A DNA stretch of 64,000 nucleotides from Gemmatimonadota bacterium (lineage in GTDB: Bacteria; Gemmatimonadota; Gemmatimonadetes; Palauibacterales; Palauibacteraceae): NCBI GenBank assembly GCA_039588275.1, contig JBDHAC010000027.1, positions 32,070 to 96,069 of the forward strand, written 5' to 3'. Made by a program: the position numbers and the translations under genes. Shown here piece by piece: positions 42,439-53,406 of this stretch. The stretch's first letter is position 1; each line of letters starts with the position of its first letter. Below the pieces are notes generated by a model. That model ran no database searches, was not told where the DNA came from, and saw only the letters and a list, made by a program, of their open reading frames with translations.

Positions 42439-43338
42439 GTGAGCATCACAGGCGATTTCGACGTCCACCTGCTGGACGGCACGTACGAGCTGTTCCGACA
42501 CTTCTACGCGCTTCCTCGACGGTCCAACGCGCTCGGCGAGGAGGTCGCGGCAGCTGCCGGCGTAGTGCGTTCCGTGCTGACCCTCCTGGCCGACGGCGCG
42601 ACGCACGTGGCCGTCGCTACCGATCACGTGATCGAGTCGTTCCGGAACGAGCTGTGGCCGGGCTACAAGGATGGGTCGGGCATCGACCCCGAGCTACGAT
42701 CGCAATTCGGGCTGCTCGAGGAGGCGCTCAGCGCTGCCGGCATCGTCGTGTGGCCCATGGTCGATTTCGAGGCCGATGACGCGCTCGCTTCGGGGGCGAG
42801 GGTCGCGGAAGCCGATCCGCGTGTGCGCCGCGTCCTCATCTGCACCCCGGACAAGGATCTCGCGCAGTGCGTTGTCGGTGAGCGCGTGGTGCAGTTCGAC
42901 CGGCGGCGCCGGCAGCTGCGCGATGAATCAGGGGTGATCGACAAGTTCGGGGTGGCTCCGGAATCGATCCCGGACTATCTGGCGCTCGTCGGGGACAGCG
43001 CCGACGGCTTCCCCGGTCTCCGTGGCTGGGGCCCCAAGTCCACATCCGCCGTGCTTGCGCGGTACGGCCACATGGAGGACATCCCGCTCGACGGCACCCT
43101 GTGGGACGTGGAGGTGAGAGGCGCGGTCGGGCTCGCGCGGACCTTCGCGACGGACATCGAGCACGCACTGCTGTTCCGGGTACTCGCCACACTCGTCCGT
43201 GACGCGACCGTCAGCCCCGCCGTGGACAGCCTCGAGTGGCGCGGCCCGCGCGCATCGTTCCCGGCCATGTGTGACCGCCTCGAGGCGCCCGAGTTACGAG
43301 AACGGGCCCGCGCCGTCGCGGCACGTCGCACGTCCTAA
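42439..43338 (+). CDS. Stand-alone 5'-3' exonuclease / flap endonuclease
   Basis: LLDGTYELFR, FRNELWPGYK, FEADD, PDKDL, LVGDSADGFPGL.GWGPK helix-3-turn-helix. Confidence 0.9.
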   Translation: MSITGDFDVHLLDGTYELFRHFYALPRRSNALGEEVAAAAGVVRSVLTLLADGATHVAVATDHVIESFRNELWPGYKDGSGIDPELRSQFGLLEEALSAAGIVVWPMVDFEADDALASGARVAEADPRVRRVLICTPDKDLAQCVVGERVVQFDRRRRQLRDESGVIDKFGVAPESIPDYLALVGDSADGFPGLRGWGPKSTSAVLARYGHMEDIPLDGTLWDVEVRGAVGLARTFATDIEHALLFRVLATLVRDATVSPAVDSLEWRGPRASFPAMCDRLEAPELRERARAVAARRTS

Positions 43339-43460
43339 GTGCGTGCTTTGCCGTGTCGACAGGCTGTCGTACGGCGGCACCTGTGTGGGTAGTCCGATCA
43401 AGGTGATTCGTCAGGGGAGCGGGGTGATCGTCGGTCGCGGCGTGATGGAGGCCTAGGATC

Positions 43461-45755
43461 GTGAGCATTAACCAGCTATTCCGCCGTCTGTCGATCCGGG
43501 CGAAACTGCTGATCGCATTTGTATTCCTCGCCGTCGTGCCATTGGTCATCATGGCCACTTTGGGGGTGCGACACACGATTCGTCAGGTTCGAGCGCTCGC
43601 ACGAACGACGCTCGAGAATGATCTGGCGGTGGCACGCACACAAACGGAGCGAGCCCTCGCGGAGGTCGAGCGCGATGTGGCGTACCTCACCTCCCACGTG
43701 CTCGGCCCTCTGATTGCTCAGCCCCCGAAAGATCCGTGGGAGGAAGCGGGTCTGGCGGCGTCCGAGTTCCTCAGCTTCAAACCCGCGCTGTTTCGCGTGA
43801 AGGTCATCGATGTGAACGGCCGCGTGATCCTGGTGGTCTACGCATCGGGGAGCGAGGTGCCCACTCCAGCCCAAGATGAGGAGGGGTTGTACTACGCTCT
43901 GCGGGCAAGCTCTCTGCAACCTGGTGAGCATCTCCTACTGCCGGTTGAGCTGCGTAGGGTTCCCGAGCAAGCCGGAGCGACGGAGACAGTTCCGGCGATC
44001 GCGATTCTGAATGCTGTCAGAAGCCCGGACGGTTCGGTGCTGGGCGCTGTCGTCGGGGAGGCACACGCGTCCGCCCTGTTCGCGCCGCTCGAAGCGAGCT
44101 CGCCGCAATTCGGCGGCGTTACGGGGCTCATCGACTCCGAAGGCCTCTACCTGTACCACTCGACTCGAAAGCGAGACTGGTCGAGCCTGCTTGCGTTGCG
44201 CTCCGAGGTGGACATCCGCAGCGAGCTGGCGCCTGAGGCGGTTGAGGTCATGCTCTCGGGTCAGACGGCGGAGACGATGCCCACCACGGACCAGCAGATC
44301 GTCAGTTATGTCCGTCTCCCCTTGGCCGGTACGGGCATTCCTCCCCTCGTACTGTATCGCCTGGTTCCTTTGTCGGCTCTGGAGGCCGGTGTGCGAAGCT
44401 TCCTGGGCATGGTAGGAATCGGGGGGCTGGTGGTGTTGAGCCTGGTGCTGGGGCTGGGGACGCTCGCCGCTCATCAGTTCACCCAACCCATCTATCAACT
44501 CCGACAGGGAGCCCGACGGCTGGCCCGAGGAGAGTCGGAGGGCCCGCTCGAGATTACGACGAGGGATGAACTGGAGGATCTGGCAAACGACTTTTCGGTC
44601 ATGGCGAGATCGCTGGTGGATCAGCGGCAAAAGCTGGAGGAGCTTGTACGGGAGCGTACGCACGCGCTGCGCGAAGTGCACGCGGAGTTGGCGGGGATTC
44701 TCGAACATTCCGCGGACGCGATCATTGGAACGGACATGGAAAGTCGGGTGCGCGTCTGGAACGACGGGGCCAAATCACTGTTCGGCTACACGGCCACCGA
44801 GGTGCATGGCCGTCCGCTCGACGACCTGCTTCTGCCATCGGGGGACAGTTGGCTGGAAGAGGCCGCGTTCCTGCGTCGCGAGGCTGGTGCGCAGGGAGCA
44901 GTCGTGAACTACCAGACGCGCAGGGTAACCCGCGATGGCACCGTGAATCCCGTGAGCCTGACGCAATCCATCATCCGTGGCACGGACGGGCAACCGATCG
45001 GCTACTCGGTCATCATCCGGGACACGCGGATGCAGGCGAGGCTGCAAGAGCAAATGCACCGTTCGGAGAGCCTGGCGACGGTCAGCGTGATGGCGGCAGG
45101 CCTCGCCCACGAACTGGGCAATCCACTCGCCGTCATCGGCAATCGCATCGAGTGCATGGAGCAGGAGATCAAAGAGCACCGCGAAGGCGAATTCCTGAAT
45201 GAAGACCTGGTGACTCTCCGCGAACACGTACGCCGTCTGGACGGTGTGATCAGGGACATGTTGAGCCTCGCACGCGAAGGTGCCGGGGATGACGAGAGCG
45301 TGGCGCTCAACGCCGTGGCCGCCAGGGTGGTACGTATCCTCGAGCGCACGTACGTGGCAAGGAAGGTCAGACTGGAGACCGATTTCGATGACTCCCTGCC
45401 TACCCTCACCGGCAGTGAGAAGGCGATCGAGACGGTGTGCGTCAACCTGATGATGAACGCGCTCGATGCGACGCCGCGTGAGGGCACCGTCTCCGTGAGG
45501 ACCCTGGCCAGCGACGGAGGCGGGGCCGTGGATCTGGAGGTAGAGGACACCGGGTCGGGCATCCCCGCCGAGTTGCGGCACCGAATCTTCGAGCCGTTCT
45601 TCACGACCAAAAAGGCCGGGCGCGGGACAGGGCTCGGTCTCGCCGTGTGTCGCAGCATCGTCGAGCGACACGGCGGAAGCATCACCGTACAGAGCCAGCC
45701 GGGGAGCGGAAGTCGCTTCACCGTTTCGCTCCCCGTCAGACGGTTTGAAATCTGA
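43461..45755 (+). CDS. Sensor histidine kinase (periplasmic Cache-like, HAMP, PAS, HisKA, HATPase)
   Basis: Two TM, RDELEDLANDF HAMP, WNDGAKSLFGY PAS, AHELGNPL, NLMMNA, DTGSG, FEPFFTTK, GTGLGL. Confidence 0.93.
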   Translation: MSINQLFRRLSIRAKLLIAFVFLAVVPLVIMATLGVRHTIRQVRALARTTLENDLAVARTQTERALAEVERDVAYLTSHVLGPLIAQPPKDPWEEAGLAASEFLSFKPALFRVKVIDVNGRVILVVYASGSEVPTPAQDEEGLYYALRASSLQPGEHLLLPVELRRVPEQAGATETVPAIAILNAVRSPDGSVLGAVVGEAHASALFAPLEASSPQFGGVTGLIDSEGLYLYHSTRKRDWSSLLALRSEVDIRSELAPEAVEVMLSGQTAETMPTTDQQIVSYVRLPLAGTGIPPLVLYRLVPLSALEAGVRSFLGMVGIGGLVVLSLVLGLGTLAAHQFTQPIYQLRQGARRLARGESEGPLEITTRDELEDLANDFSVMARSLVDQRQKLEELVRERTHALREVHAELAGILEHSADAIIGTDMESRVRVWNDGAKSLFGYTATEVHGRPLDDLLLPSGDSWLEEAAFLRREAGAQGAVVNYQTRRVTRDGTVNPVSLTQSIIRGTDGQPIGYSVIIRDTRMQARLQEQMHRSESLATVSVMAAGLAHELGNPLAVIGNRIECMEQEIKEHREGEFLNEDLVTLREHVRRLDGVIRDMLSLAREGAGDDESVALNAVAARVVRILERTYVARKVRLETDFDDSLPTLTGSEKAIETVCVNLMMNALDATPREGTVSVRTLASDGGGAVDLEVEDTGSGIPAELRHRIFEPFFTTKKAGRGTGLGLAVCRSIVERHGGSITVQSQPGSGSRFTVSLPVRRFEI

Positions 45756-47146
45756 TGGCCGACCCACGTGTCCTGATCGTCGATGACGAGCTGGCGATGC
45801 TCGAGAACTGTTGTCGACTGCTCAGTCGGGAGGGGTACGTCTGCGATACCCTCTCACAGCCGGTCGACTTTCGAGATCGTCTCGCCATGACGCAGCCCGA
45901 TGTGGTCCTCTTGGATCTCCGTATGCCGGAGGTCGATGGAATGACCCTGCTTACTGTGGCGCTGGCCGATGACCCGACCCTCCCGGTCATCATCATGACG
46001 GCCTACGCGACAGTCTCGTCCGCAGTCCACGCGATCCGCGAGGGGGCGTTCGACTATCTGACGAAGCCGTTCAGGGGTGAGGAGCTTCTAATCGCTGTGG
46101 AGCGGGCCATCCGTCATCGCGAGCTGGCCAGGGAGAACAAGGTGCTGCGAGAGCGGATGGCACGCGGAGCCGACAGAGAGACACTCGTCGGCTCCAGTCC
46201 CGTGATGGTCAGACTGATGCAACGGATGGAGAAGGTGGCGGCAGCCGAGGCCAACGTTCTGATAACGGGTGAAAGCGGAACGGGCAAAGAGCTGATCGCT
46301 CGAACCATTCATGAGCTGAGCGAGCGGAAGAGGCATCGCTTCGTGCCCGTAGACTGTGCAGCCCTGCCCGAGGGTCTGCTGGAGAGCGAGCTGTTCGGGC
46401 ACGAGCGCGGCGCTTTCACCAGTGCGGACGCTCGAAAGATCGGGCTACTCGAGGACGGAAACCACGGCACCGTGTTTCTGGACGAAGTCGCCGAGCTCAG
46501 CCAGCCGCTGCAGTCCAAGCTCCTGCGCGTACTCGAGGAGCGAAAGGTGCGACGGGTCGGCGGGAACGAGCTGATCGAAGTGGACATACGTGTGATCGCT
46601 GCCACCAATCAGGAGCTTGATAAAGCGGTCGCGGACGGTCGGTTCCGCGAGGATCTGTACTATCGCCTCAAGGTCGTACCGATCCAAGTTCCTCCGCTTC
46701 GGGATCGAGCCGGTGATATCGCTTTATTGGCGCAGGGGTTCCTCGCGCGGTATTCCGCCGCCCAGGGGAAGGAGGCGCCGAGAATCTCACCGGATGTTTG
46801 GGATCTGTTGGAGCGCTACGATTGGCCGGGAAATGTCCGAGAGCTCAAGAACCTCGTCGAACGACTCGTGGTGTTGGACGAGGACGGCTTCGTCTCGCTT
46901 GCCCACCTTCCGGAGTCACTCAGACCGCCCGTGAGGCTCTCCAGGCCGCCTGGGGCTACGGCGCCTGAGTCCTACGAGGAGGCCCGCGAGGCAGCTCTGC
47001 GCGCCTTCAAGGCTGACTACGTCGCACAGCTCCTCGGCGCGAACGACGGCAACGTCTCGAAAGCGGCCCGACAAGCGGGCGTCAGCCGGCGCACCTTTCA
47101 CCGATGGCTTGCGGGGCTTGGTCAAGCGGGCGGAGCGAAGCCATGA
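45755..47146 (+). CDS. Sigma-54-dependent response regulator (NtrC/AtoC family)
   Basis: Receiver VDDE/LLD/KP; AAA+ GESGTGKE, GAFTSA, FLDEV, FREDLYYRL, WPGNVREL; Fis-type HTH; TGATG coupling to the kinase. Confidence 0.95.
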   Translation: MADPRVLIVDDELAMLENCCRLLSREGYVCDTLSQPVDFRDRLAMTQPDVVLLDLRMPEVDGMTLLTVALADDPTLPVIIMTAYATVSSAVHAIREGAFDYLTKPFRGEELLIAVERAIRHRELARENKVLRERMARGADRETLVGSSPVMVRLMQRMEKVAAAEANVLITGESGTGKELIARTIHELSERKRHRFVPVDCAALPEGLLESELFGHERGAFTSADARKIGLLEDGNHGTVFLDEVAELSQPLQSKLLRVLEERKVRRVGGNELIEVDIRVIAATNQELDKAVADGRFREDLYYRLKVVPIQVPPLRDRAGDIALLAQGFLARYSAAQGKEAPRISPDVWDLLERYDWPGNVRELKNLVERLVVLDEDGFVSLAHLPESLRPPVRLSRPPGATAPESYEEAREAALRAFKADYVAQLLGANDGNVSKAARQAGVSRRTFHRWLAGLGQAGGAKP

Positions 47147-47769
47147 AGAGGACGTTTCCGTGGCTCGCGGCGTTCCTTGCACAATTGCTCATTCATGCAC
47201 CCATCGCAGCCCAGCCCGTCACCATCGAGGGGGTCGTGCGCGCGTCCGGAAGGGTCGCAGATCTCGTCGTTTACCTCATTTCGGCGACCCCGTTCGGGCC
47301 GCCCAAACCTCAGACTACTCCGTTCATCGACCAGGTGCGGCTCCGGTTCGTGCCCGCCGTCCTCGCGGTGTCAGCAGGCTCAACGGTCGAGTTCCGAAAC
47401 AGCGATCCGATCCTGCACAACGTCTTCAGTCCGGAGGGCCCCGGGCCCGGCTTCGACCTGGGCACCTATCCTCGGACCGAATCGCGCTCCCACACGTTCA
47501 CCGAACTCGGATCACACGTCATACTCTGTCACGTCCATCCCGAGATGTACGCCTACGTGATCGTCGTCCCGACGCCGTATCACGCCATGGTGAACGAGGA
47601 CGGCACCTTTCGGATCGATGGCGTCCCTCCAGGGCGATACACCCTGAATGTCGTTGAGCGTCGACAGAACCGTTTCTCTCGAAACATCGCGCTGGAAGGC
47701 AATGATGGATTCAATCTGTTGCTCGACCTGACCACAGACGAGCTGGAGGTCCGTAGTCGTGGCCGATAG
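47143..47769 (+). CDS. Exported cupredoxin-like protein with type-1 copper ligand set and prealbumin-like flanking domain
   Basis: Signal peptide; HNVFS plus CHVHPEM (Cys-X2-His-X2-Met); ATGA overlap with the regulator. Confidence 0.75.
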   Translation: MKRTFPWLAAFLAQLLIHAPIAAQPVTIEGVVRASGRVADLVVYLISATPFGPPKPQTTPFIDQVRLRFVPAVLAVSAGSTVEFRNSDPILHNVFSPEGPGPGFDLGTYPRTESRSHTFTELGSHVILCHVHPEMYAYVIVVPTPYHAMVNEDGTFRIDGVPPGRYTLNVVERRQNRFSRNIALEGNDGFNLLLDLTTDELEVRSRGR

Positions 47770-49192
47770 CGCAAACCGGTTCTCGCTCGCGGCGTTGACG
47801 CTCGCTGTGATGGGCATCGTCGGAACCGGAGCCGCGTCTCCTGCATCCGTGACGCGCAGCTCGCACCCGAATGTGCTTGCCGACATCCCGGCATTCGCCC
47901 GGAAGTATCGCACCGGCTGCTCCACGTGCCATACGGCGGCCCCCAAGCTGAACGTGCTCGGCGAGGCCTTCCGGCTGAACGGGTACAAGTTCCCCGAAAA
48001 CGACGCACTGCTCCGAAGAGACGAGCCGGTACCATTGGGGGCGGACCCCTGGAAAGATCTTTGGCCGCGCGCGATCTGGCCGGGTGAACTACCGGGCGGT
48101 GTCCCGATCGCGGTGGGGCTCCGGAGCGACATACAGTACACACGAGATCCCGACGCAGGTGCCACCTGGGATTTCTTGTTTCCGGAAGAGCTATACATCG
48201 TCGCCGGCAGCAGCCTCGGCCAGAGTGTCAGCGCTTACTTGTCCACCGAGTGGACTCCTGGCGAGGGCGTCGAAGTGGATCAGGCGAAGGTGGAGCTTCA
48301 GGATCTCGTACCGGGGCTGCCGGCGAGGGCGGTCAACCTCTGGATCGGATTCCAGAAACTGTACCCGTTGACGTTTGCCGATCGATACATCGACGGCGCT
48401 GCGCGTCAAGGCTTCATGTGGCAGAGCTTCCGGGCCTCCGATCTCGACCTGGTTAATCCCGCGACCGGCGAGAGCGTCCGATCATCCAATGACTTTCGGC
48501 TCCGCCATAGTCAGGCAGCCATCGAGATCAACGGGCTCGGGGCAGGACGGTTCTATTACGGGCTGGGGGTCAGTCAGGGTGCGAGTGGCTTGAGCCGTGA
48601 CAACAACGCGCGAAAGGACTTCTTCTACAAGCTCCGATACAAGCTCGGCGGCCTGCGGCTCGACGGACGCTACGATAGCGCTGGCGTGCTGCCTGAGGGG
48701 GCCGGAGGGCAGCTTCTGGATAAGACCCTGACCGTCGAGCACTTCGGCTATTTCGGTGCCGAACCCGTGGAGGGTGGGAGGCAGGATACTCACCAGTCGT
48801 TCGGAGTGAGCGCTCGCGCGCGGTACGGCCGTGCCGATCTCGGCCTCGGGTTCGTGTGGGGGACTCACGAGAATCCCTGGGGCGACATCGCGGCGGGCGA
48901 GCTCTCCCATTCGAGCCTGTTCGCGAAGGGAGAGTACCTGGTGTATCCGTGGCTCATCGGGTCGCTGAAGTTCGAGACGTTCGACGCTGACGTGCCAACT
49001 GAGATCCGCGTGGCCGGGTACAGTGAGGGTAGCGCCGACCAGACCAGGCTCCTGCCGGGGGTGATCGCGCTTTTGCGTCAGAACGTCCGGGCCGTGGTGG
49101 AGGCCGAGTTGTTTACGGAGCACGCGCTGAACGCATCCGTCGGCAAGCCTAGGCCCCATTCCCTTTGGTTCCGCCTCGAGGTCGCCTACTGA
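47759..49192 (+). CDS. Cyc2-like fused monoheme cytochrome c / outer-membrane beta-barrel
   Basis: Signal peptide; IPAFARKY-x3-CSTCH-x3-PKLNVLGEAFRLNGY; amphipathic beta strands; C-terminal FRLEVAY; GGAGG RBS. Confidence 0.8.
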   Translation: MADSANRFSLAALTLAVMGIVGTGAASPASVTRSSHPNVLADIPAFARKYRTGCSTCHTAAPKLNVLGEAFRLNGYKFPENDALLRRDEPVPLGADPWKDLWPRAIWPGELPGGVPIAVGLRSDIQYTRDPDAGATWDFLFPEELYIVAGSSLGQSVSAYLSTEWTPGEGVEVDQAKVELQDLVPGLPARAVNLWIGFQKLYPLTFADRYIDGAARQGFMWQSFRASDLDLVNPATGESVRSSNDFRLRHSQAAIEINGLGAGRFYYGLGVSQGASGLSRDNNARKDFFYKLRYKLGGLRLDGRYDSAGVLPEGAGGQLLDKTLTVEHFGYFGAEPVEGGRQDTHQSFGVSARARYGRADLGLGFVWGTHENPWGDIAAGELSHSSLFAKGEYLVYPWLIGSLKFETFDADVPTEIRVAGYSEGSADQTRLLPGVIALLRQNVRAVVEAELFTEHALNASVGKPRPHSLWFRLEVAY

Positions 49193-49203
49193 CACTTCGC
49201 CCG

Positions 49204-49244
49204 GTGTGACGCTCGCTGACACACTGGGACCGCCATCGTCACAC
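49204..49244. promoter_or_regulatory. Candidate tandem enhancer (UAS) for the sigma-54 activator
   Basis: GTGTGAC-N7-GACACAC (49204-49224) and CTGGGAC-N7-GTCACAC (49224-49244), two imperfect palindromes 20 bp apart. Confidence 0.55.
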
Positions 49245-49351
49245 TCTCCTCGCGCGGCCTACAGCCGACACGGAAGCCGGCCGCACTCATAATCGGTTGT
49301 CGTAACACACCATACAGGCTCCGCACGCGAACGCGCCCACCGAACCACGTT

Positions 49352-49367
49352 GGGCGTACTCCGTGCA
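49352..49367 (+). promoter_or_regulatory. Candidate sigma-54 -24/-12 promoter
   Basis: GGGCGTACTCCGTGCA with GG(49353-54)-N10-GC(49365-66) spacing, upstream of the porin gene. Confidence 0.5.
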
Positions 49368-49490
49368 TGGGTGGCATGTCGAGCTCCTGCGGATCTGATC
49401 GCTCGTCGGCCGGCGAGCCGTTTTCGTTCCGCACACGAATTCCCCTCCGGACCGTTGAGTCCGGGTGCCAGTCGGAAGGGAGGCTCGGCC

Positions 49491-50543
49491 ATGCGAAGGT
49501 TTTTTGAGTGCCGATGGGCCGGTGTCCTGGTTTTGGGCCTGTTGGCGGCGGTCGTCAGTACCGGTCGCCTCCATGCCCAGGGTCTGATCGTCAGCGGGTA
49601 CGGAGATATTGAGTGGACGTTGGAAGACCGGGGTGAGGAGGACGGTTGGAGGCACGCGTTCGACAACCACCACATCAACCTGATCCTGCTCGGTGCCATT
49701 CTCGACGACCTGCTCGTCGGGGTCGAGGTGGAGTACGAGCATGCCGGAGAGGAGATCGTGCTGGAGTACGGGTACCTGGCGTATACGGGTATCAAGGGTC
49801 TGCGGATCGCCGGCGGGAAGTTCATCATTCCGTTCAATAAGTGGAACAAGGACATCCACCCGACCTGGATGAGCCGCATGCCGGGGCGGCCGCTGACGTA
49901 CGTCAACGTGTTCCCGTCGACGTACTCAGATGTCGGCGTTTGGCTGTCTGGAGGGGCTCCGGTCGGAGGAGGGTCTCGCGTCGTATACGACGCGTACATC
50001 GTGAACGGGCTGGAAGGTGACCCGGACGCCACGAGCTTCCGGGGGCTGCGCGACAATGATCGGGAGCGCCCCCGCCGTGGCAACAACAAGGCAGTCGGGG
50101 GAAGGCTCGGAGTGGAGCTCGCGGCCGGTCTGGGCCTGGGCGTGTCCGCGTACACGGGCGACTACGCCGAGGACGAGAACGAGAATGGTCTCGGGATCAC
50201 CTTCTTCGGCGCGGACATCGACTACAGCAGGAACAACCTGGATCTGCGCGCCGAGTTCGTGACGGCGAACCAGGACCTGACGGTGCCCGGTCGCAACAAG
50301 CGCACCGGGTTCTACGCTCAGGCCGCGTATGAGATCAACCGGTTCGAGCCGGTCGTGCGCTACTCGTGGGTCGACTTCGAGGAGGACTCGGGCGACACGT
50401 CCGAGCTCGGGATCGGGTTCAGTTATTACGTGGGCTCGTCCTCGGCGTTTCGGTTGGCCTACTTCATCAACACGGAGCGGCACGGGACCGATTTCAAGAG
50501 GGACAACAACAAGCTCATGTCGCAATTCGTCATCGCATTCTGA
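49491..50543 (+). CDS. Outer-membrane porin-like beta-barrel protein
   Basis: Signal peptide ending LHA-Q; alternating beta strands, NNKAVGGRLG, GFYAQAAY, terminal Phe; GGGAGG RBS. Confidence 0.8.
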   Translation: MRRFFECRWAGVLVLGLLAAVVSTGRLHAQGLIVSGYGDIEWTLEDRGEEDGWRHAFDNHHINLILLGAILDDLLVGVEVEYEHAGEEIVLEYGYLAYTGIKGLRIAGGKFIIPFNKWNKDIHPTWMSRMPGRPLTYVNVFPSTYSDVGVWLSGGAPVGGGSRVVYDAYIVNGLEGDPDATSFRGLRDNDRERPRRGNNKAVGGRLGVELAAGLGLGVSAYTGDYAEDENENGLGITFFGADIDYSRNNLDLRAEFVTANQDLTVPGRNKRTGFYAQAAYEINRFEPVVRYSWVDFEEDSGDTSELGIGFSYYVGSSSAFRLAYFINTERHGTDFKRDNNKLMSQFVIAF

Positions 50544-50555
50544 GGAGCTAGCCAA

Positions 50556-51188
50556 ATGACCAAGCAATCGATGCTCAAGACGGCGCTGGCCGGCACGACC
50601 GTGCTCGCTGCCTTGTTGGCAGCTCCTTCGCCGGCCTCGACGCAGGAGTCGGGCGCGGAGGTCTGGGGCCGAACGTGCGGACGGTGTCACCGGATGCAGC
50701 CGCCGAACAAATACGACGCCCGGCATTGGGAGGCGATCGTCCGACATATGGCGCTCAACGCACGGATGACCGCCGATGAGGAAGCCGCGGTGAGCGAGTT
50801 CCTCATGGGGGCCGCACGGCGCCTGGCGGCGGAGAGCCCGAGCGAGGGTTCTGTCGAGGTCGCGCAGTTGGCATCCGTGGACCCCGCCATCGTGGTCGCC
50901 GAACTCATCGCTCGAGCAGAGGGCGACGCGATCTACAAGAAGCAGTGTGCCGCCTGCCATGGTGACAGCGGAGAGGGAGACGGTCCTGCCGCCGGTGCGT
51001 TCAACCCGAAGCCGACGGATTTGACGGACGCCGATCGGATGAGCGAGTTGACCGACGATCAGCTGCTGACGGTTCTGAAGGATGGGAAAGGAGCGATGCC
51101 GGGCTTCTCGGCCATCCTGAAGATCGAAGACCTGCAGGCCCTGATCGAGTACCTCCGGACGCTAACCGATGGGGACGACGGCAGGTAA
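50556..51188 (+). CDS. Periplasmic diheme c-type cytochrome
   Basis: Signal peptide; CGRCH and CAACH; candidate distal Met in RHM and GAMPGF; GAGGAG RBS. Confidence 0.9.
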   Translation: MTKQSMLKTALAGTTVLAALLAAPSPASTQESGAEVWGRTCGRCHRMQPPNKYDARHWEAIVRHMALNARMTADEEAAVSEFLMGAARRLAAESPSEGSVEVAQLASVDPAIVVAELIARAEGDAIYKKQCAACHGDSGEGDGPAAGAFNPKPTDLTDADRMSELTDDQLLTVLKDGKGAMPGFSAILKIEDLQALIEYLRTLTDGDDGR

Positions 51189-51284
51189 TCAAGCAGGAAG
51201 ACGGACAGGTGACTAGGGCATGAGCCAATCAAGCGGATGAATCGCTCCGTTTCGAGGCGGAAGAATGGCTCGATAAGACCCTGG

Positions 51285-51359
51285 GCCGGGGCCCGTTGCC
51301 CGACGTGAGCTTTGCCCCAAGCAGGAGCTCAGCATGGCGTCGGGGAGCGGGTCCCCGGC
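51285..51359. terminator. Long GC-rich stem-loop between convergent genes (possible terminator/stabiliser)
   Basis: Nested stems GCCGGGG/CCCCGGC, CCCGACG/CGTCGGG, TGAGCT/AGCTCA; no U-tract. Confidence 0.4.
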
Positions 51360-51399
51360 GCATCTCCACGATCCCCAATCGTCAACGGGGCGAAGGGGG

Positions 51400-53379
51400 C
51401 TACCGCGCCCACAGGGCCCCGATGCCCTCCTCGTAGGGTACGAGGGTCCATGCGTCAGCCGGATCCGCCTCGCGCCCCGGCGGGAGCAGCACGAGCGGGA
51501 CGCGATCCGGATAGCGCTCGATGAGCCGCGCGTTCTGGTCGGGACCCAGGTCCCTCGCCCACATGATCCCCGTGCCGGGCAACCCGGGCAGATCACCCTT
51601 CCACAAGAATCCGCTGAGACCGATGATGCCTCGGGCGTCCGCGGCTTCTTCGCGACGGCACCTCTCCTGGCCCTCGTCCGGCGGGACGCGATCCAGCGCC
51701 AGCTGCAGGGTACACGTCGGATATCGCGACAACAGGGCTCGAAGGCTATCCAATCGGAGGCCCTGGCCGGCCAGGCGTCCCCCCACCCGGTCGCTCCACG
51801 CCTCGTGCACGAAGCCGAGCGCCGGGACCGCGGGCGCGCCCCCCGGTTGCGGGTCCAACCGTGATGTGAACCGCTGGAGCCGAGTCGCTCCGCCATATGC
51901 GAGGCCGTAGGCGAGCAGCAGCAGGAACGCCACGGAGGCTCCCTCGGAAACCCACTTCACCTGGCCTCGTGTACGTCGCAGCGCGCCCACGAGACCGATC
52001 CCGGAGAGGACGGCCAACAGGCACCAGGCCGGGGCGGCCTCACCGAGCATGCGCGGGCCGAACACGAGATCGTGGTGCCAGTACAGCGCGCTCGCGATGA
52101 CGGGCAGTCCGGCCCACGCCAGGAGGATGCGCTCGCCGCGGCTCAGTCGCCGGGCAATCAACAGGTAGACCCCGATCAGCGCGACGAGCGGGACGGGCGT
52201 GCCGAGCAGGTCGCGGCCCAGCGTCACGAGCTCGGCGGAGGAATAGCCCACTCCGTCGGCCACACCGTAGGGCCGCCCCCACGGATCGACATGGAAGCCC
52301 AAGCCATGGTTCGGACCTGCGGCGGCCTGGTATCCGAGCCGAAACGGGCTCCCGAAGAAGTGGCGATTGAACGCACCGAACCCGATGGCGAACGGAAGAC
52401 CTCCAATCACCAGGGCGGCTGCTCGCTTCAGAAGAGCTCCTCTTCCCCCAGCGCCCGACAGAAGGCCGTGCCACCACACGCCGATCGTGACCACCGCGCC
52501 GATGATGAGCCCCGTGAGAGGCCTGGTGATCACCATCCACCCCACGGCGGCTCCCGTCGCTGTCGCCCAGCTCCAATGCCCGTCCTCGGCTCGTAGCGCG
52601 CAGTAGAGCGCGAGCGCCGCGAGCGCCGCCATGGTCGCGTGGCTCATGTAGCCGGCCGCCAGGCCGAGGAGCAGGGGGCTCCCGGCCACGAGGATCGAGC
52701 CCGCGCGGACCTGCGCCCTTCGGTCGGGGAGTAGTCTCTCCATGGACAGCGCCGTGAACAGCGCCGTGATCCCCATCGCCAGGACACCGATCAGCCACGG
52801 AGCGCCGAGCAGGATGCCGATGGCGAGCGCGAGCGAGTGGCCCGGCGGGTATTGCGAGACCCACCCGGCCTCGGTGTGGACCATGAACTGGATCGACCAG
52901 AACTCGGGCAACTCGAGCGGCGGGGCCGACAGGTGGCCGGACGCGAAGTACCGAGCCTGGATGAGCTGAACGCTGGCGTCGATCAGGACCGTTTGCGCCT
53001 TGAAGACCCCGAACGTCACCCAGAGGGTGAGAAGACTCGCCAGGAGCCCGATTCCGAGGGCGAACGGCACGCGCGGAAGCGATCGCAGCGTCTGGCCGAC
53101 GCGCTCGAACAGGTGTGTCCCCCGCCCTCGGAGGAGGGCCCCCAGGACCAGACCCGCCGCGAGGGCGACGCCGAGGTAAACCCACCCCATGCGCCATTGC
53201 TGCTCGGCGGACCCGGCCATCAAGCGACCGGTCACACCGGTATGGGGTGCGTCGACGATGCGGAACACGGGGACCACGACCGCCAGGACGAGAACCAGCC
53301 CGGCGAGGCGGCGTAGTCCGTCAGCGACCGCCGGCATCGCCGGTTGCCGACTCACACGCCGACGGCCCTCGGCTACCAC
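51400..53379 (-). CDS. Polytopic membrane protein, probable GT-C fold glycosyltransferase
   Basis: Many TM; SQYPPG, YMSH, TRP, FGSPF..GY, FGPR patterns seen in ArnT/PMT-like proteins. Confidence 0.65.
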   Translation of the reverse strand: MVAEGRRRVSRQPAMPAVADGLRRLAGLVLVLAVVVPVFRIVDAPHTGVTGRLMAGSAEQQWRMGWVYLGVALAAGLVLGALLRGRGTHLFERVGQTLRSLPRVPFALGIGLLASLLTLWVTFGVFKAQTVLIDASVQLIQARYFASGHLSAPPLELPEFWSIQFMVHTEAGWVSQYPPGHSLALAIGILLGAPWLIGVLAMGITALFTALSMERLLPDRRAQVRAGSILVAGSPLLLGLAAGYMSHATMAALAALALYCALRAEDGHWSWATATGAAVGWMVITRPLTGLIIGAVVTIGVWWHGLLSGAGGRGALLKRAAALVIGGLPFAIGFGAFNRHFFGSPFRLGYQAAAGPNHGLGFHVDPWGRPYGVADGVGYSSAELVTLGRDLLGTPVPLVALIGVYLLIARRLSRGERILLAWAGLPVIASALYWHHDLVFGPRMLGEAAPAWCLLAVLSGIGLVGALRRTRGQVKWVSEGASVAFLLLLAYGLAYGGATRLQRFTSRLDPQPGGAPAVPALGFVHEAWSDRVGGRLAGQGLRLDSLRALLSRYPTCTLQLALDRVPPDEGQERCRREEAADARGIIGLSGFLWKGDLPGLPGTGIMWARDLGPDQNARLIERYPDRVPLVLLPPGREADPADAWTLVPYEEGIGALWAR

Positions 53380-53406
53380 CCGCTCGCGCCCCCGGCCCGG
53401 CCGCGC

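Follow-up and report, generated by a model that had tools for sequence, protein, structure and literature searches.

The fused cytochrome-porin Cyc2 is the main marker gene for calling iron oxidation in metagenomes, and its gene is part of the rus operon of Acidithiobacillus ferrooxidans, which consists of cyc2, cyc1, an open reading frame (ORF), coxBACD and rus (PMC10367259, PMC5506826). PMC13692758 (2026) speaks of soluble carriers for Cyc2 electrons as 'unidentified until now', and a 2026 review (PMC13741234) describes the regulation of Cyc2 as incompletely understood. Cyc2 homologues in metagenome-assembled genomes (MAGs) of Gemmatimonadota have been surveyed previously (PMC9769843, PMC10367259, PMC11316326). 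Here we analysed a window of 64,000 nt from a Gemmatimonadota bacterium (assembly GCA_039588275.1, contig JBDHAC010000027.1, positions 32,070 to 96,069 of the forward strand), in which a sequence-only reading had proposed a regulated electron-transfer cassette of six genes at positions 43461..51188. We found that the feature is real and well conserved, and that its conserved unit comprises four genes, for a sensor kinase, a sigma-54-dependent regulator, a copper (Cu) protein and a Cyc2-family protein, which could form a switchable electron route across the outer membrane. A full-text literature search found no description of a kinase-sigma-54 regulator-cupredoxin-Cyc2 cassette. The sequence-only reading had called the lineage one not established as a metal oxidiser, a point that needs amending, since the surveys had already listed Cyc2 homologues in Gemmatimonadota MAGs.

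The six ORFs of the cassette lie on the + strand, each being the longest in its own stretch (ORF list and translations). Their common direction and the gene identities proposed for them were confirmed by the ORFs, translations and domain scans, and because each has many conserved relatives the six are more than chance ORFs. The first four genes overlap, as had been claimed: the kinase stop and the regulator start have one base in common in the TGATG at 45753-45757, the regulator and Cu genes share the ATGA at 47143-47146, provided that the Cu gene starts at the signal-peptide Met 47143, and the Cu and Cyc2 genes overlap by 11 nt, with the Cyc2 GTG at 47759, 10 nt downstream of a GGAGG, and the Cu-gene TAG at 47767-47769. 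Owing to the ATGA overlap with the regulator gene, 47143 is the likely start of the Cu gene and the upstream ATG 47104 an unlikely alternative. A 295-nt spacer then separates the Cyc2 gene from the porin gene, whose start is most likely the ATG at 49488, which is preceded by GGAAGGGAGG and opens a signal peptide in translation, and not the TTG at 49350; the ORFs lie at the coordinates stated in the sequence-only reading, this start being a probable correction. The dihaem cytochrome gene begins 12 nt after the porin stop codon, with a GGAG in between.

The fourth gene (47759..49192, +) encodes the fused monohaem cytochrome-porin, a protein of 477 residues with a single CXXCH at residues 54-58 that gave no Pfam or NCBIfam match. 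Part of its sequence reads ...DIPAFARKYRTGCSTCHTAAPKL..., with the order PAFARKY-RTG-CSTCH-TAA-PKL. As given by Keffer et al. (2021; PMC8406198), Cyc2 proteins have at least 365 residues and a single CXXCH, with AXPXFAR[Q/K][T/Y] before it and PXL about four residues after it; the screening step there uses PXFAR[Q/K][T/Y], and a 16-strand porin resembling OprO/OprP is expected. The window protein passes on length and on the single N-terminal CXXCH, it has the screening motif as PAFARKY three residues ahead of the first Cys, and it has PXL as PKL three residues past CSTCH, with P62, K63 and L64 invariant among 25 sequences. The register from motif to CXXCH is identical in a FARQT-type Cyc2 of another locus (L078). 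In the AlphaFold2 model, for which 25 sequences were used, residues 117-476 form 16 long strands, mostly at confidence scores (pLDDT) of 80-94, and Foldseek against the PDB retrieved 16-strand porins, among them Omp32 (2fgq, E 5.8e-12) and, at rank 29, OprP (2o4v), which PMC8406198 names as a template. By the published sequence criteria the 477-residue protein is thus assigned to the Cyc2 family, with a predicted 16-strand barrel; the cytochrome-barrel fusion of the sequence-only reading passed the published motif and length screen, and the barrel fold at 47759-49192, which that reading had named as a point on which it could fail, is present in the model.

The family, for which Pfam and NCBIfam have no model, is large: a profile built from the 25 sequences matched 2456 cluster representatives with E<=1e-3, and 686 were left when the threshold was E<=1e-10. 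Among the best 150 representatives, exactly one CXXCH was found in 141, the other nine being fragments without CXXCH; a strict regular expression for the whole motif was passed by 82 of those 141, and the remaining 59 carry near variants such as FSRKY and FARRY. None of the 120 closest proteins listed has a precomputed Pfam domain, and the named ones are Gemmatimonadota entries called 'hypothetical protein'.

The Cu gene (47143..47769, +) encodes a secreted protein of 208 residues, which scored 19.3 bits against Copper-bind (PF00127, cut-off 21.2) and 22.2 bits against NCBIfam TIGR02657 (cut-off 110.2), and which also gave a weak CarboxypepD_reg match; its homologue in locus L076 passes PF00127 with 29.5 bits. 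Among PDB sequences it aligned to amicyanin (1sf3_A, phmmer E 5e-4), in an alignment that places the C-x2-H-x2-M loop and the His of 'HNV' at the positions of the amicyanin ligands (His, Cys, His, Met). The C-x2-H-x2-M loop was found in 52/52 Cu copies adjoining Cyc2 and the first His in all 50 copies covering it, two others being cut by contig ends; H70, C107, H110 and M113 are invariant in an alignment of 30 sequences. The AlphaFold2 model (pLDDT 92.4) was closest in Foldseek to amicyanin 1sfd_A (E 3e-7, TM 0.76 on the target), then to pseudoazurin and plastocyanin. The aligned ligands and the modelled fold identify a probably periplasmic type-1 cupredoxin, in agreement with the type-1 Cu protein previously proposed. 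No rusticyanin occurs among the PDB sequences that matched with E<=1 (34 in all) or among the best 50 Foldseek ranks, in which similar chains are collapsed. A CarboxypepD_reg-like beta-sandwich follows the cupredoxin. Because the CarboxypepD_reg match covers profile positions 17-74 only and a conserved beta hairpin precedes the cupredoxin, we suspect that the cupredoxin is inserted into this domain, to which the N-terminal hairpin may belong; the N-terminal 29 residues containing this hairpin gave no Pfam match when searched alone.

The sensor histidine kinase (43461..45755, +) matched the Pfam families HATPase_c (1.4e-29), PAS (2.1e-13), HisKA (2.5e-09) and HAMP (8e-08), and its putative periplasmic sensor is Cache-like, with dCache_1 at 34.5 bits, under the Pfam cut-off of 45. 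The response regulator (45755..47146, +) matched Response_reg (7.5e-27), Sigma54_activat (2.9e-69), AAA_lid_14 and, at 21.1 bits and thus slightly below the cut-off of 22, HTH_8; its translation contains GESGTGKE and a GAFTGA-type loop that reads GAFTSA. With a receiver, a sigma-54 AAA+ domain and a C-terminal helix-turn-helix, the last at this marginal score, the protein fits the NtrC type. Neither protein reached the cut-off of an NCBIfam equivalog, the best for the regulator being AtoC with 452 against the required 714 bits. The gene rpoN was found in the host genome. Upstream of the kinase gene, five relatives have sigma-54 promoters of the TGGCAC-N5-TTGC type that keep 9-11 of the 11 consensus bases (locus and position: L016:3596, L018:3625, L019:2853, L029:2383 and L049:3432), which suggests that the cassette operons are autoregulated.

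A locus scan with one genome per species gave 100 matching stretches, 57 of which were confirmed as loci. Fifty-two of the 57 are Gemmatimonadota loci of the window's ortholog group, with 44-91% identity, and the closest one (L001, 91%) comes from a Gemmatimonadota MAG, in accord with the lineage that had been proposed for the window. Counting only loci with enough flanking DNA, the Cu gene lies directly upstream of Cyc2 in 46/48 loci, the exceptions being rearranged (L023) or carrying a 1.2-kb insert (L029); a sigma-54 regulator is present in 37/40, and a kinase lies upstream of Cyc2 in 32/34. The porin follows Cyc2 in only 3/39 loci (L007, L025 and L046), leaving out partial porin matches at the ends of L001 and L009, and a dihaem-like cytochrome was found within 4 kb in 8/33, as a full-length ortholog in L007 and L046 only. 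Downstream of Cyc2, other loci carry varying further cupredoxins, c-type cytochromes and a beta-propeller-like protein. Since the Cu, regulator and kinase genes are frequent beside Cyc2 and the porin and dihaem genes are rare there, the conserved unit consists of four genes, not six. The synteny of the proposed six-gene cassette is in this way upheld for the kinase, regulator, Cu and Cyc2 genes and abandoned for the last two, which also occur elsewhere without Cyc2.

Across 301 Gemmatimonadota genomes, the Cyc2 profile matched at E<=1e-10 in 91. A strong full-length ortholog was present in nine, the window's genome included, with the Cu gene adjacent in 9/9, while the remaining matches span mostly the haem motif, in Cyc2-type proteins of a different build. 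We examined 16 such distant Cyc2-type loci, a non-random choice made mostly for long contigs: a Cu homologue lay within 3 kb in 10, seven showing the order Cyc2, dihaem cytochrome c, Cu homologue and three having Cu and Cyc2 adjacent, one of the latter with kinase, regulator, Cyc2 and Cu; no Cu homologue was found within about 3 kb in the other six. The Cu-Cyc2 pairing is also present in loci of Acidobacteria (L053, L054) and Elusimicrobia (L052). As a side observation, seven loci (L061, L062, L066, L069, L070, L072 and L073) carry a longer Cyc2 subtype with the motif FARKY..C[SA]ACH and 518-580 residues in complete ORFs, the L073 protein being shorter (264 residues); this subtype always precedes a two-domain cytochrome c and then the Cu homologue, that is, the same three parts in another order.

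Ten loci were examined starting from the Cu gene. In L083:4078-9858 and L084:3973-9781, a cytochrome c/EB_dh gene, the Cu homologue and COX2, COX1 and COX3 form an aa3-type oxidase operon; the Cu homologue is about 34% identical to that of the window, and 16/16 sampled genomes of the genus had no Cyc2 match. On one strand of L076:1897-7458 lie genes for a sigma-54 regulator, the Cu protein, a Rieske protein, a cytochrome b-c fusion, a monohaem cytochrome c and a decahaem cytochrome, so that the Cu carrier there stands beside a bc-type complex and a multihaem protein in place of Cyc2. With homologues placed within an aa3 oxidase operon or next to Rieske and cytochrome b genes in other Gemmatimonadota, these neighbourhoods are those expected of a periplasmic carrier feeding electrons to the respiratory chain, and they speak for such a role of the Cu family. 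In L078:2285-8065, a kinase-regulator-Cu unit is convergent with a 467-residue Cyc2 of the 'PSFARQTGMACASCH' type, whose likeness to the window protein is restricted to the haem region. Mid-range Cu homologues in L080:5965-8704 and L082:3872-6683 stand beside a membrane Ser/Thr kinase with dCache_3 and HAMP (Pfam), a sensor unlike the window's histidine kinase; L081 is similar, but the ORFs called there gave no dCache_3-HAMP kinase match.

Taken together, we consider the chances slightly better than even that the translationally coupled four-gene unit is a switchable electron route from the outer membrane to the periplasm, with Fe(II) as the most probable reductant. The kinase would sense a substrate, redox or metal cue in the periplasm, and the regulator would activate the operon through sigma-54. 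The haem of the Cyc2 barrel, as predicted from its relatives, would oxidise dissolved Fe(II) or a similar soluble reductant outside the cell and hand the electron directly to the type-1 Cu protein that is co-translated with Cyc2. The next carriers would be c-type cytochromes, here probably the neighbouring dihaem protein, with a haem-copper oxidase at the end, which makes the presumed flow inward.

Several observations weigh against this route or parts of it. Many Cyc2 homologues occur in organisms not known as iron oxidisers, as reported in PMC9769843, so that family membership does not fix the substrate. In the Cyc2-family protein itself, the first position of the longer AXPXFAR motif is Asp, not Ala, and the N-terminal haem region (residues 21-113) has a pLDDT below 50, for which reason the model does not fix the haem position. 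The Cu family is found in 208/301 genomes (a count that includes the unpublished genome G157) versus 91/301 for Cyc2, and around two kinase-regulator-Cu units (L075, L079) nothing that matches the window's Cyc2 was found within about 6 kb; because the family is far wider than Cyc2 and such units exist, the Cu protein is not a dedicated Cyc2 partner. The claim of an own regulator is borne out by the conservation of the two-component genes beside Cu and Cyc2 and falls short at the promoter, for sigma-54 matches in the window are not above chance (157 versus 175 expected from shuffles, with up to 3 mismatches), and in the best conserved candidate, at the corresponding position (43338-43353), AG takes the place of the necessary GG, which L001 does have. 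Finally, a RuBisCO large subunit was not found in the host genome, an assembly of 4.1 Mb in 103 contigs that is 86% complete and carries one Cyc2 copy. COX1, which counts in favour of the route, gave six matches on four contigs, all other than the cassette contig, and domain scans detected no oxidase subunit genes between 38191 and 61782. As no RuBisCO was found and several haem-copper oxidases were, the Cyc2 route would supplement a heterotrophic aerobe and not support autotrophy.

The last two genes encode a stand-alone outer-membrane porin, probably of the Porin_O_P/Porin_4 type and without a haem motif (49488..50543, +), and a periplasmic dihaem cytochrome c (50556..51188, +). The porin gave no Pfam match at E<=0.1; PF07396 and/or PF13609 is found in 62 of its 120 listed homologues, four of the 120 bear the NCBI name 'porin', and its ortholog in L077 reaches Porin_O_P with 22.9 bits (cut-off 20.9). 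The cytochrome has the motifs CGRCH and CAACH and matched DHC (24.4 bits, cut-off 22.2) and Cytochrome_CBB3 (1.3e-19); its PDB sequence matches are to c552, c6 and cbb3 CcoP-type domains, and no cytochrome c4 or Cyc1 name occurs among the 30 PDB chains matched. In 7/7 further loci the porin ortholog lies directly upstream of the dihaem gene on the same strand, and because of this constant adjacency the two genes are a separate two-gene module. These loci (L085-L091, from genomes G086, G135, G281, G060, G179, G258 and G105) have the pair standing away from Cyc2, and in L085, L086, L087 and L090 it adjoins other histidine kinase/sigma-54 regulator pairs, away from any Cyc2. We also considered the pair as a 'split Cyc2' and rejected the idea: the porin and Cyc2 profiles gave an hhalign probability of 0.2%, and the dihaem and Cyc2 profiles have only the CXXCH stretch in common.

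The alternative that survives best concerns this module, which may be independent of the Cyc2 route, for example a small-anion or metal pore with its own cytochrome that merely neighbours the four genes here. Its rarity behind Cyc2 and its occurrence elsewhere in seven genomes speak for independence, as do the lack of profile similarity between the porin and the Cyc2 barrel and the 295-nt spacer that parts the pair from Cyc2 with a site resembling a sigma-70 promoter (49265-49293, +) and a hairpin whose tail is rich in T (49401-49418, +), both consensus matches in a spacer where promoter-like sites (2 versus 1.1 expected) and terminator-like ones (4 versus 4.3 expected) are at chance level. 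Set against this, dihaem orthologs occur in 10/301 genomes and six of those 10 hold a strong Cyc2 ortholog, compared with 9/301 overall, although related genomes are not independent counts; in L077 (G261) the orthologous porin (59% identity) and dihaem (56%) genes are convergent to a kinase-regulator-Cu unit without Cyc2; and dihaem cytochromes c follow other Cyc2 subtypes. We regard independence as a serious possibility that nevertheless falls below even chances. In the preferred reading of a regulated Cyc2-Cu route, the pair would be an accessory, likely a periplasmic cytochrome c relay that is Cyc1-like in role and has its own pore.

An inducible protective system is a further alternative, in which the kinase would sense toxic Fe(II), Cu(I) or Mn(II), and Cyc2 and the Cu protein would oxidise the metal, the electrons being disposed of. 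Two-component switches of this dedicated kind are typical of stress responses, the host looks heterotrophic, with no RuBisCO found and with acetyl-CoA synthetase, peptidases and sugar hydrolases flanking the cassette, and most of the new Cyc2 homologues in PMC9769843 were in putative heterotrophs. The Cu homologues in the aa3 oxidase operon and by Rieske/cytochrome b, however, point to a respiratory chain in which energy would be conserved anyway, and domain scans of the cassette and its flanks detected no metal-efflux or chaperone genes in or adjoining it. Protection thus appears unlikely beside the respiratory route through Cyc2 and the Cu protein.

Lower still we place an outward flow, in which respiratory electrons would reach an external acceptor by way of the Cu protein and Cyc2, or an uptake from a solid or humic donor in place of dissolved Fe(II), either of which we judge improbable. 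Type-1 Cu proteins usually have high potentials, which suit the oxidase end of a chain and argue against it. The characterised Cyc2 proteins named in PMC8406198 and PMC13692758 all oxidise Fe(II), and a monohaem within a 16-strand barrel is argued in PMC8406198 to reach dissolved species only; on the other side, direction is not readable from sequence, the survey of marine Gemmatimonadota notes that iron oxidation and reduction are indistinguishable by such annotations (PMC11316326), and a Cyc2 potential as low as -130 mV has been measured (PMC13692758). The inward Cyc2-Cu route remains the one that we prefer.

That the Cu protein handles copper, binding it in the periplasm or conferring resistance under control by a metal-sensing two-component pair, and does not transfer electrons is very improbable: cupredoxin-like folds are used in copper resistance and the cassette has its own sensor, but all four residues of the His-Cys-His-Met type-1 site are invariant, the neighbouring genes encode haem proteins and oxidase subunits and not copper pumps, and the regulator is of the NtrC type, whereas copper-sensing regulators are usually of the OmpR type.

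The genes around the cassette are unrelated to it. Upstream lie housekeeping genes for acetyl-CoA synthetase, an MFS transporter, a 3-keto-disaccharide hydrolase and a 5'-3' exonuclease, and downstream those for a DPP-IV peptidase and ABC transporter parts. ORFs of 51200-53400 have no counterpart in related loci, and the end of the cassette was for this reason set at 51188; outside it, a 659-residue ORF on the - strand (51400-53379) gave a weak PMT_2 (glycosyltransferase-like) match (E 1.4e-4, below cut-off). An imperfect inverted repeat (49200..49228, +) starts 8 nt past the Cyc2 stop, with 11-nt arms (cccggtgtgac and gacacactggg, 9/11 pairs) and a 7-nt loop; the arms pair perfectly in L001, the locus with 91% identity, and L007 retains part of the repeat. 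It is a possible terminator, stabiliser or protein-binding site, and as it has no T tract it may be the last and not a terminator. No Rfam family matched 43000-51600 at E<=1. A look-up of 45755-51188 in read datasets listed no RNA dataset and one marine sediment metagenome DNA dataset, which contains 0.36 of the words.

A wider reading is that Gemmatimonadota, and similar loci of Acidobacteria and Elusimicrobia, carry a self-contained, switchable 'iron socket': a periplasm-sensing kinase and a sigma-54 activator would switch on a Cyc2 with a dedicated acceptor, a previously undescribed cupredoxin with a beta-sandwich docking domain, whose carrier family would plug into the aa3 oxidase and Rieske/cytochrome b, and the porin-dihaem pair would be a second, unfused conduit. 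We offer this whole only tentatively and think it rather unlikely; if true, it would name the periplasmic partner of the neutrophile-type Cyc2. Short of that, the translationally coupled type-1 Cu protein, with relatives in oxidase operons, is a candidate electron acceptor for neutrophile Cyc2, and the dedicated sensor kinase and sigma-54 activator are a candidate control of Cyc2 expression. The host belongs to a widespread and mostly heterotrophic phylum found in sediment, and caution is advisable in that a Cyc2 match in such genomes may mark a regulated accessory route and not an iron-based lifestyle.

Compared with known Cyc2 proteins (Mariprofundus Cyc2PV-1, Acidithiobacillus ferrooxidans Cyc2 and Ghiorsea Cyc2TAG1, as described in PMC8406198 and PMC13692758), the window protein has in common a signal peptide, a single N-terminal CXXCH, PXFAR[Q/K][T/Y], PXL, a length of about 450-480 residues and a predicted 16-strand OprP/OprO-type porin. 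It differs in belonging to a separate FARKY-type clade, with about 30% identity or less to other Gemmatimonadota Cyc2 types, and in having genes for a cupredoxin and for a sigma-54 two-component system of its own upstream. The Cu protein resembles amicyanin and plastocyanin (PF00127, TIGR02657) in the His and Cys-x2-His-x2-Met ligands and the predicted cupredoxin fold, but it scores below the family cut-offs and carries the CarboxypepD_reg-like domain; the 'sulfocyanin' matches that PMC11316326 also lists for Gemmatimonadota may be cupredoxins of this type. With MtrAB/PCC conduits the locus shares the strict pairing of a porin gene with one for a c-type cytochrome, although the cytochrome carries only two haems where such conduits have ten or more, and the porin is of about 320 residues and probably of the Porin_O_P/Porin_4 type.

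The likeness to the rus operon lies in the joint presence of an outer-membrane Cyc2 with a dihaem c-type cytochrome and a type-1 cupredoxin, and in the implied route from Cyc2 through the cupredoxin and cytochrome c to the oxidase. The differences are that the cassette has no oxidase genes and so does not qualify as a rus-type operon, that its cupredoxin is amicyanin-like with an added beta-sandwich domain and is not rusticyanin, that its dihaem protein is not recognisably Cyc1-like, that its control would be by a dedicated NtrC-type pair where rus is under the global RegBA system (PMC5506826), and that its host belongs to a neutrophilic marine-sediment lineage (dataset label 'marine sediment metagenome'). 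The comparison with rus drawn in the sequence-only reading is thus fair, and it holds as a functional analogy only.

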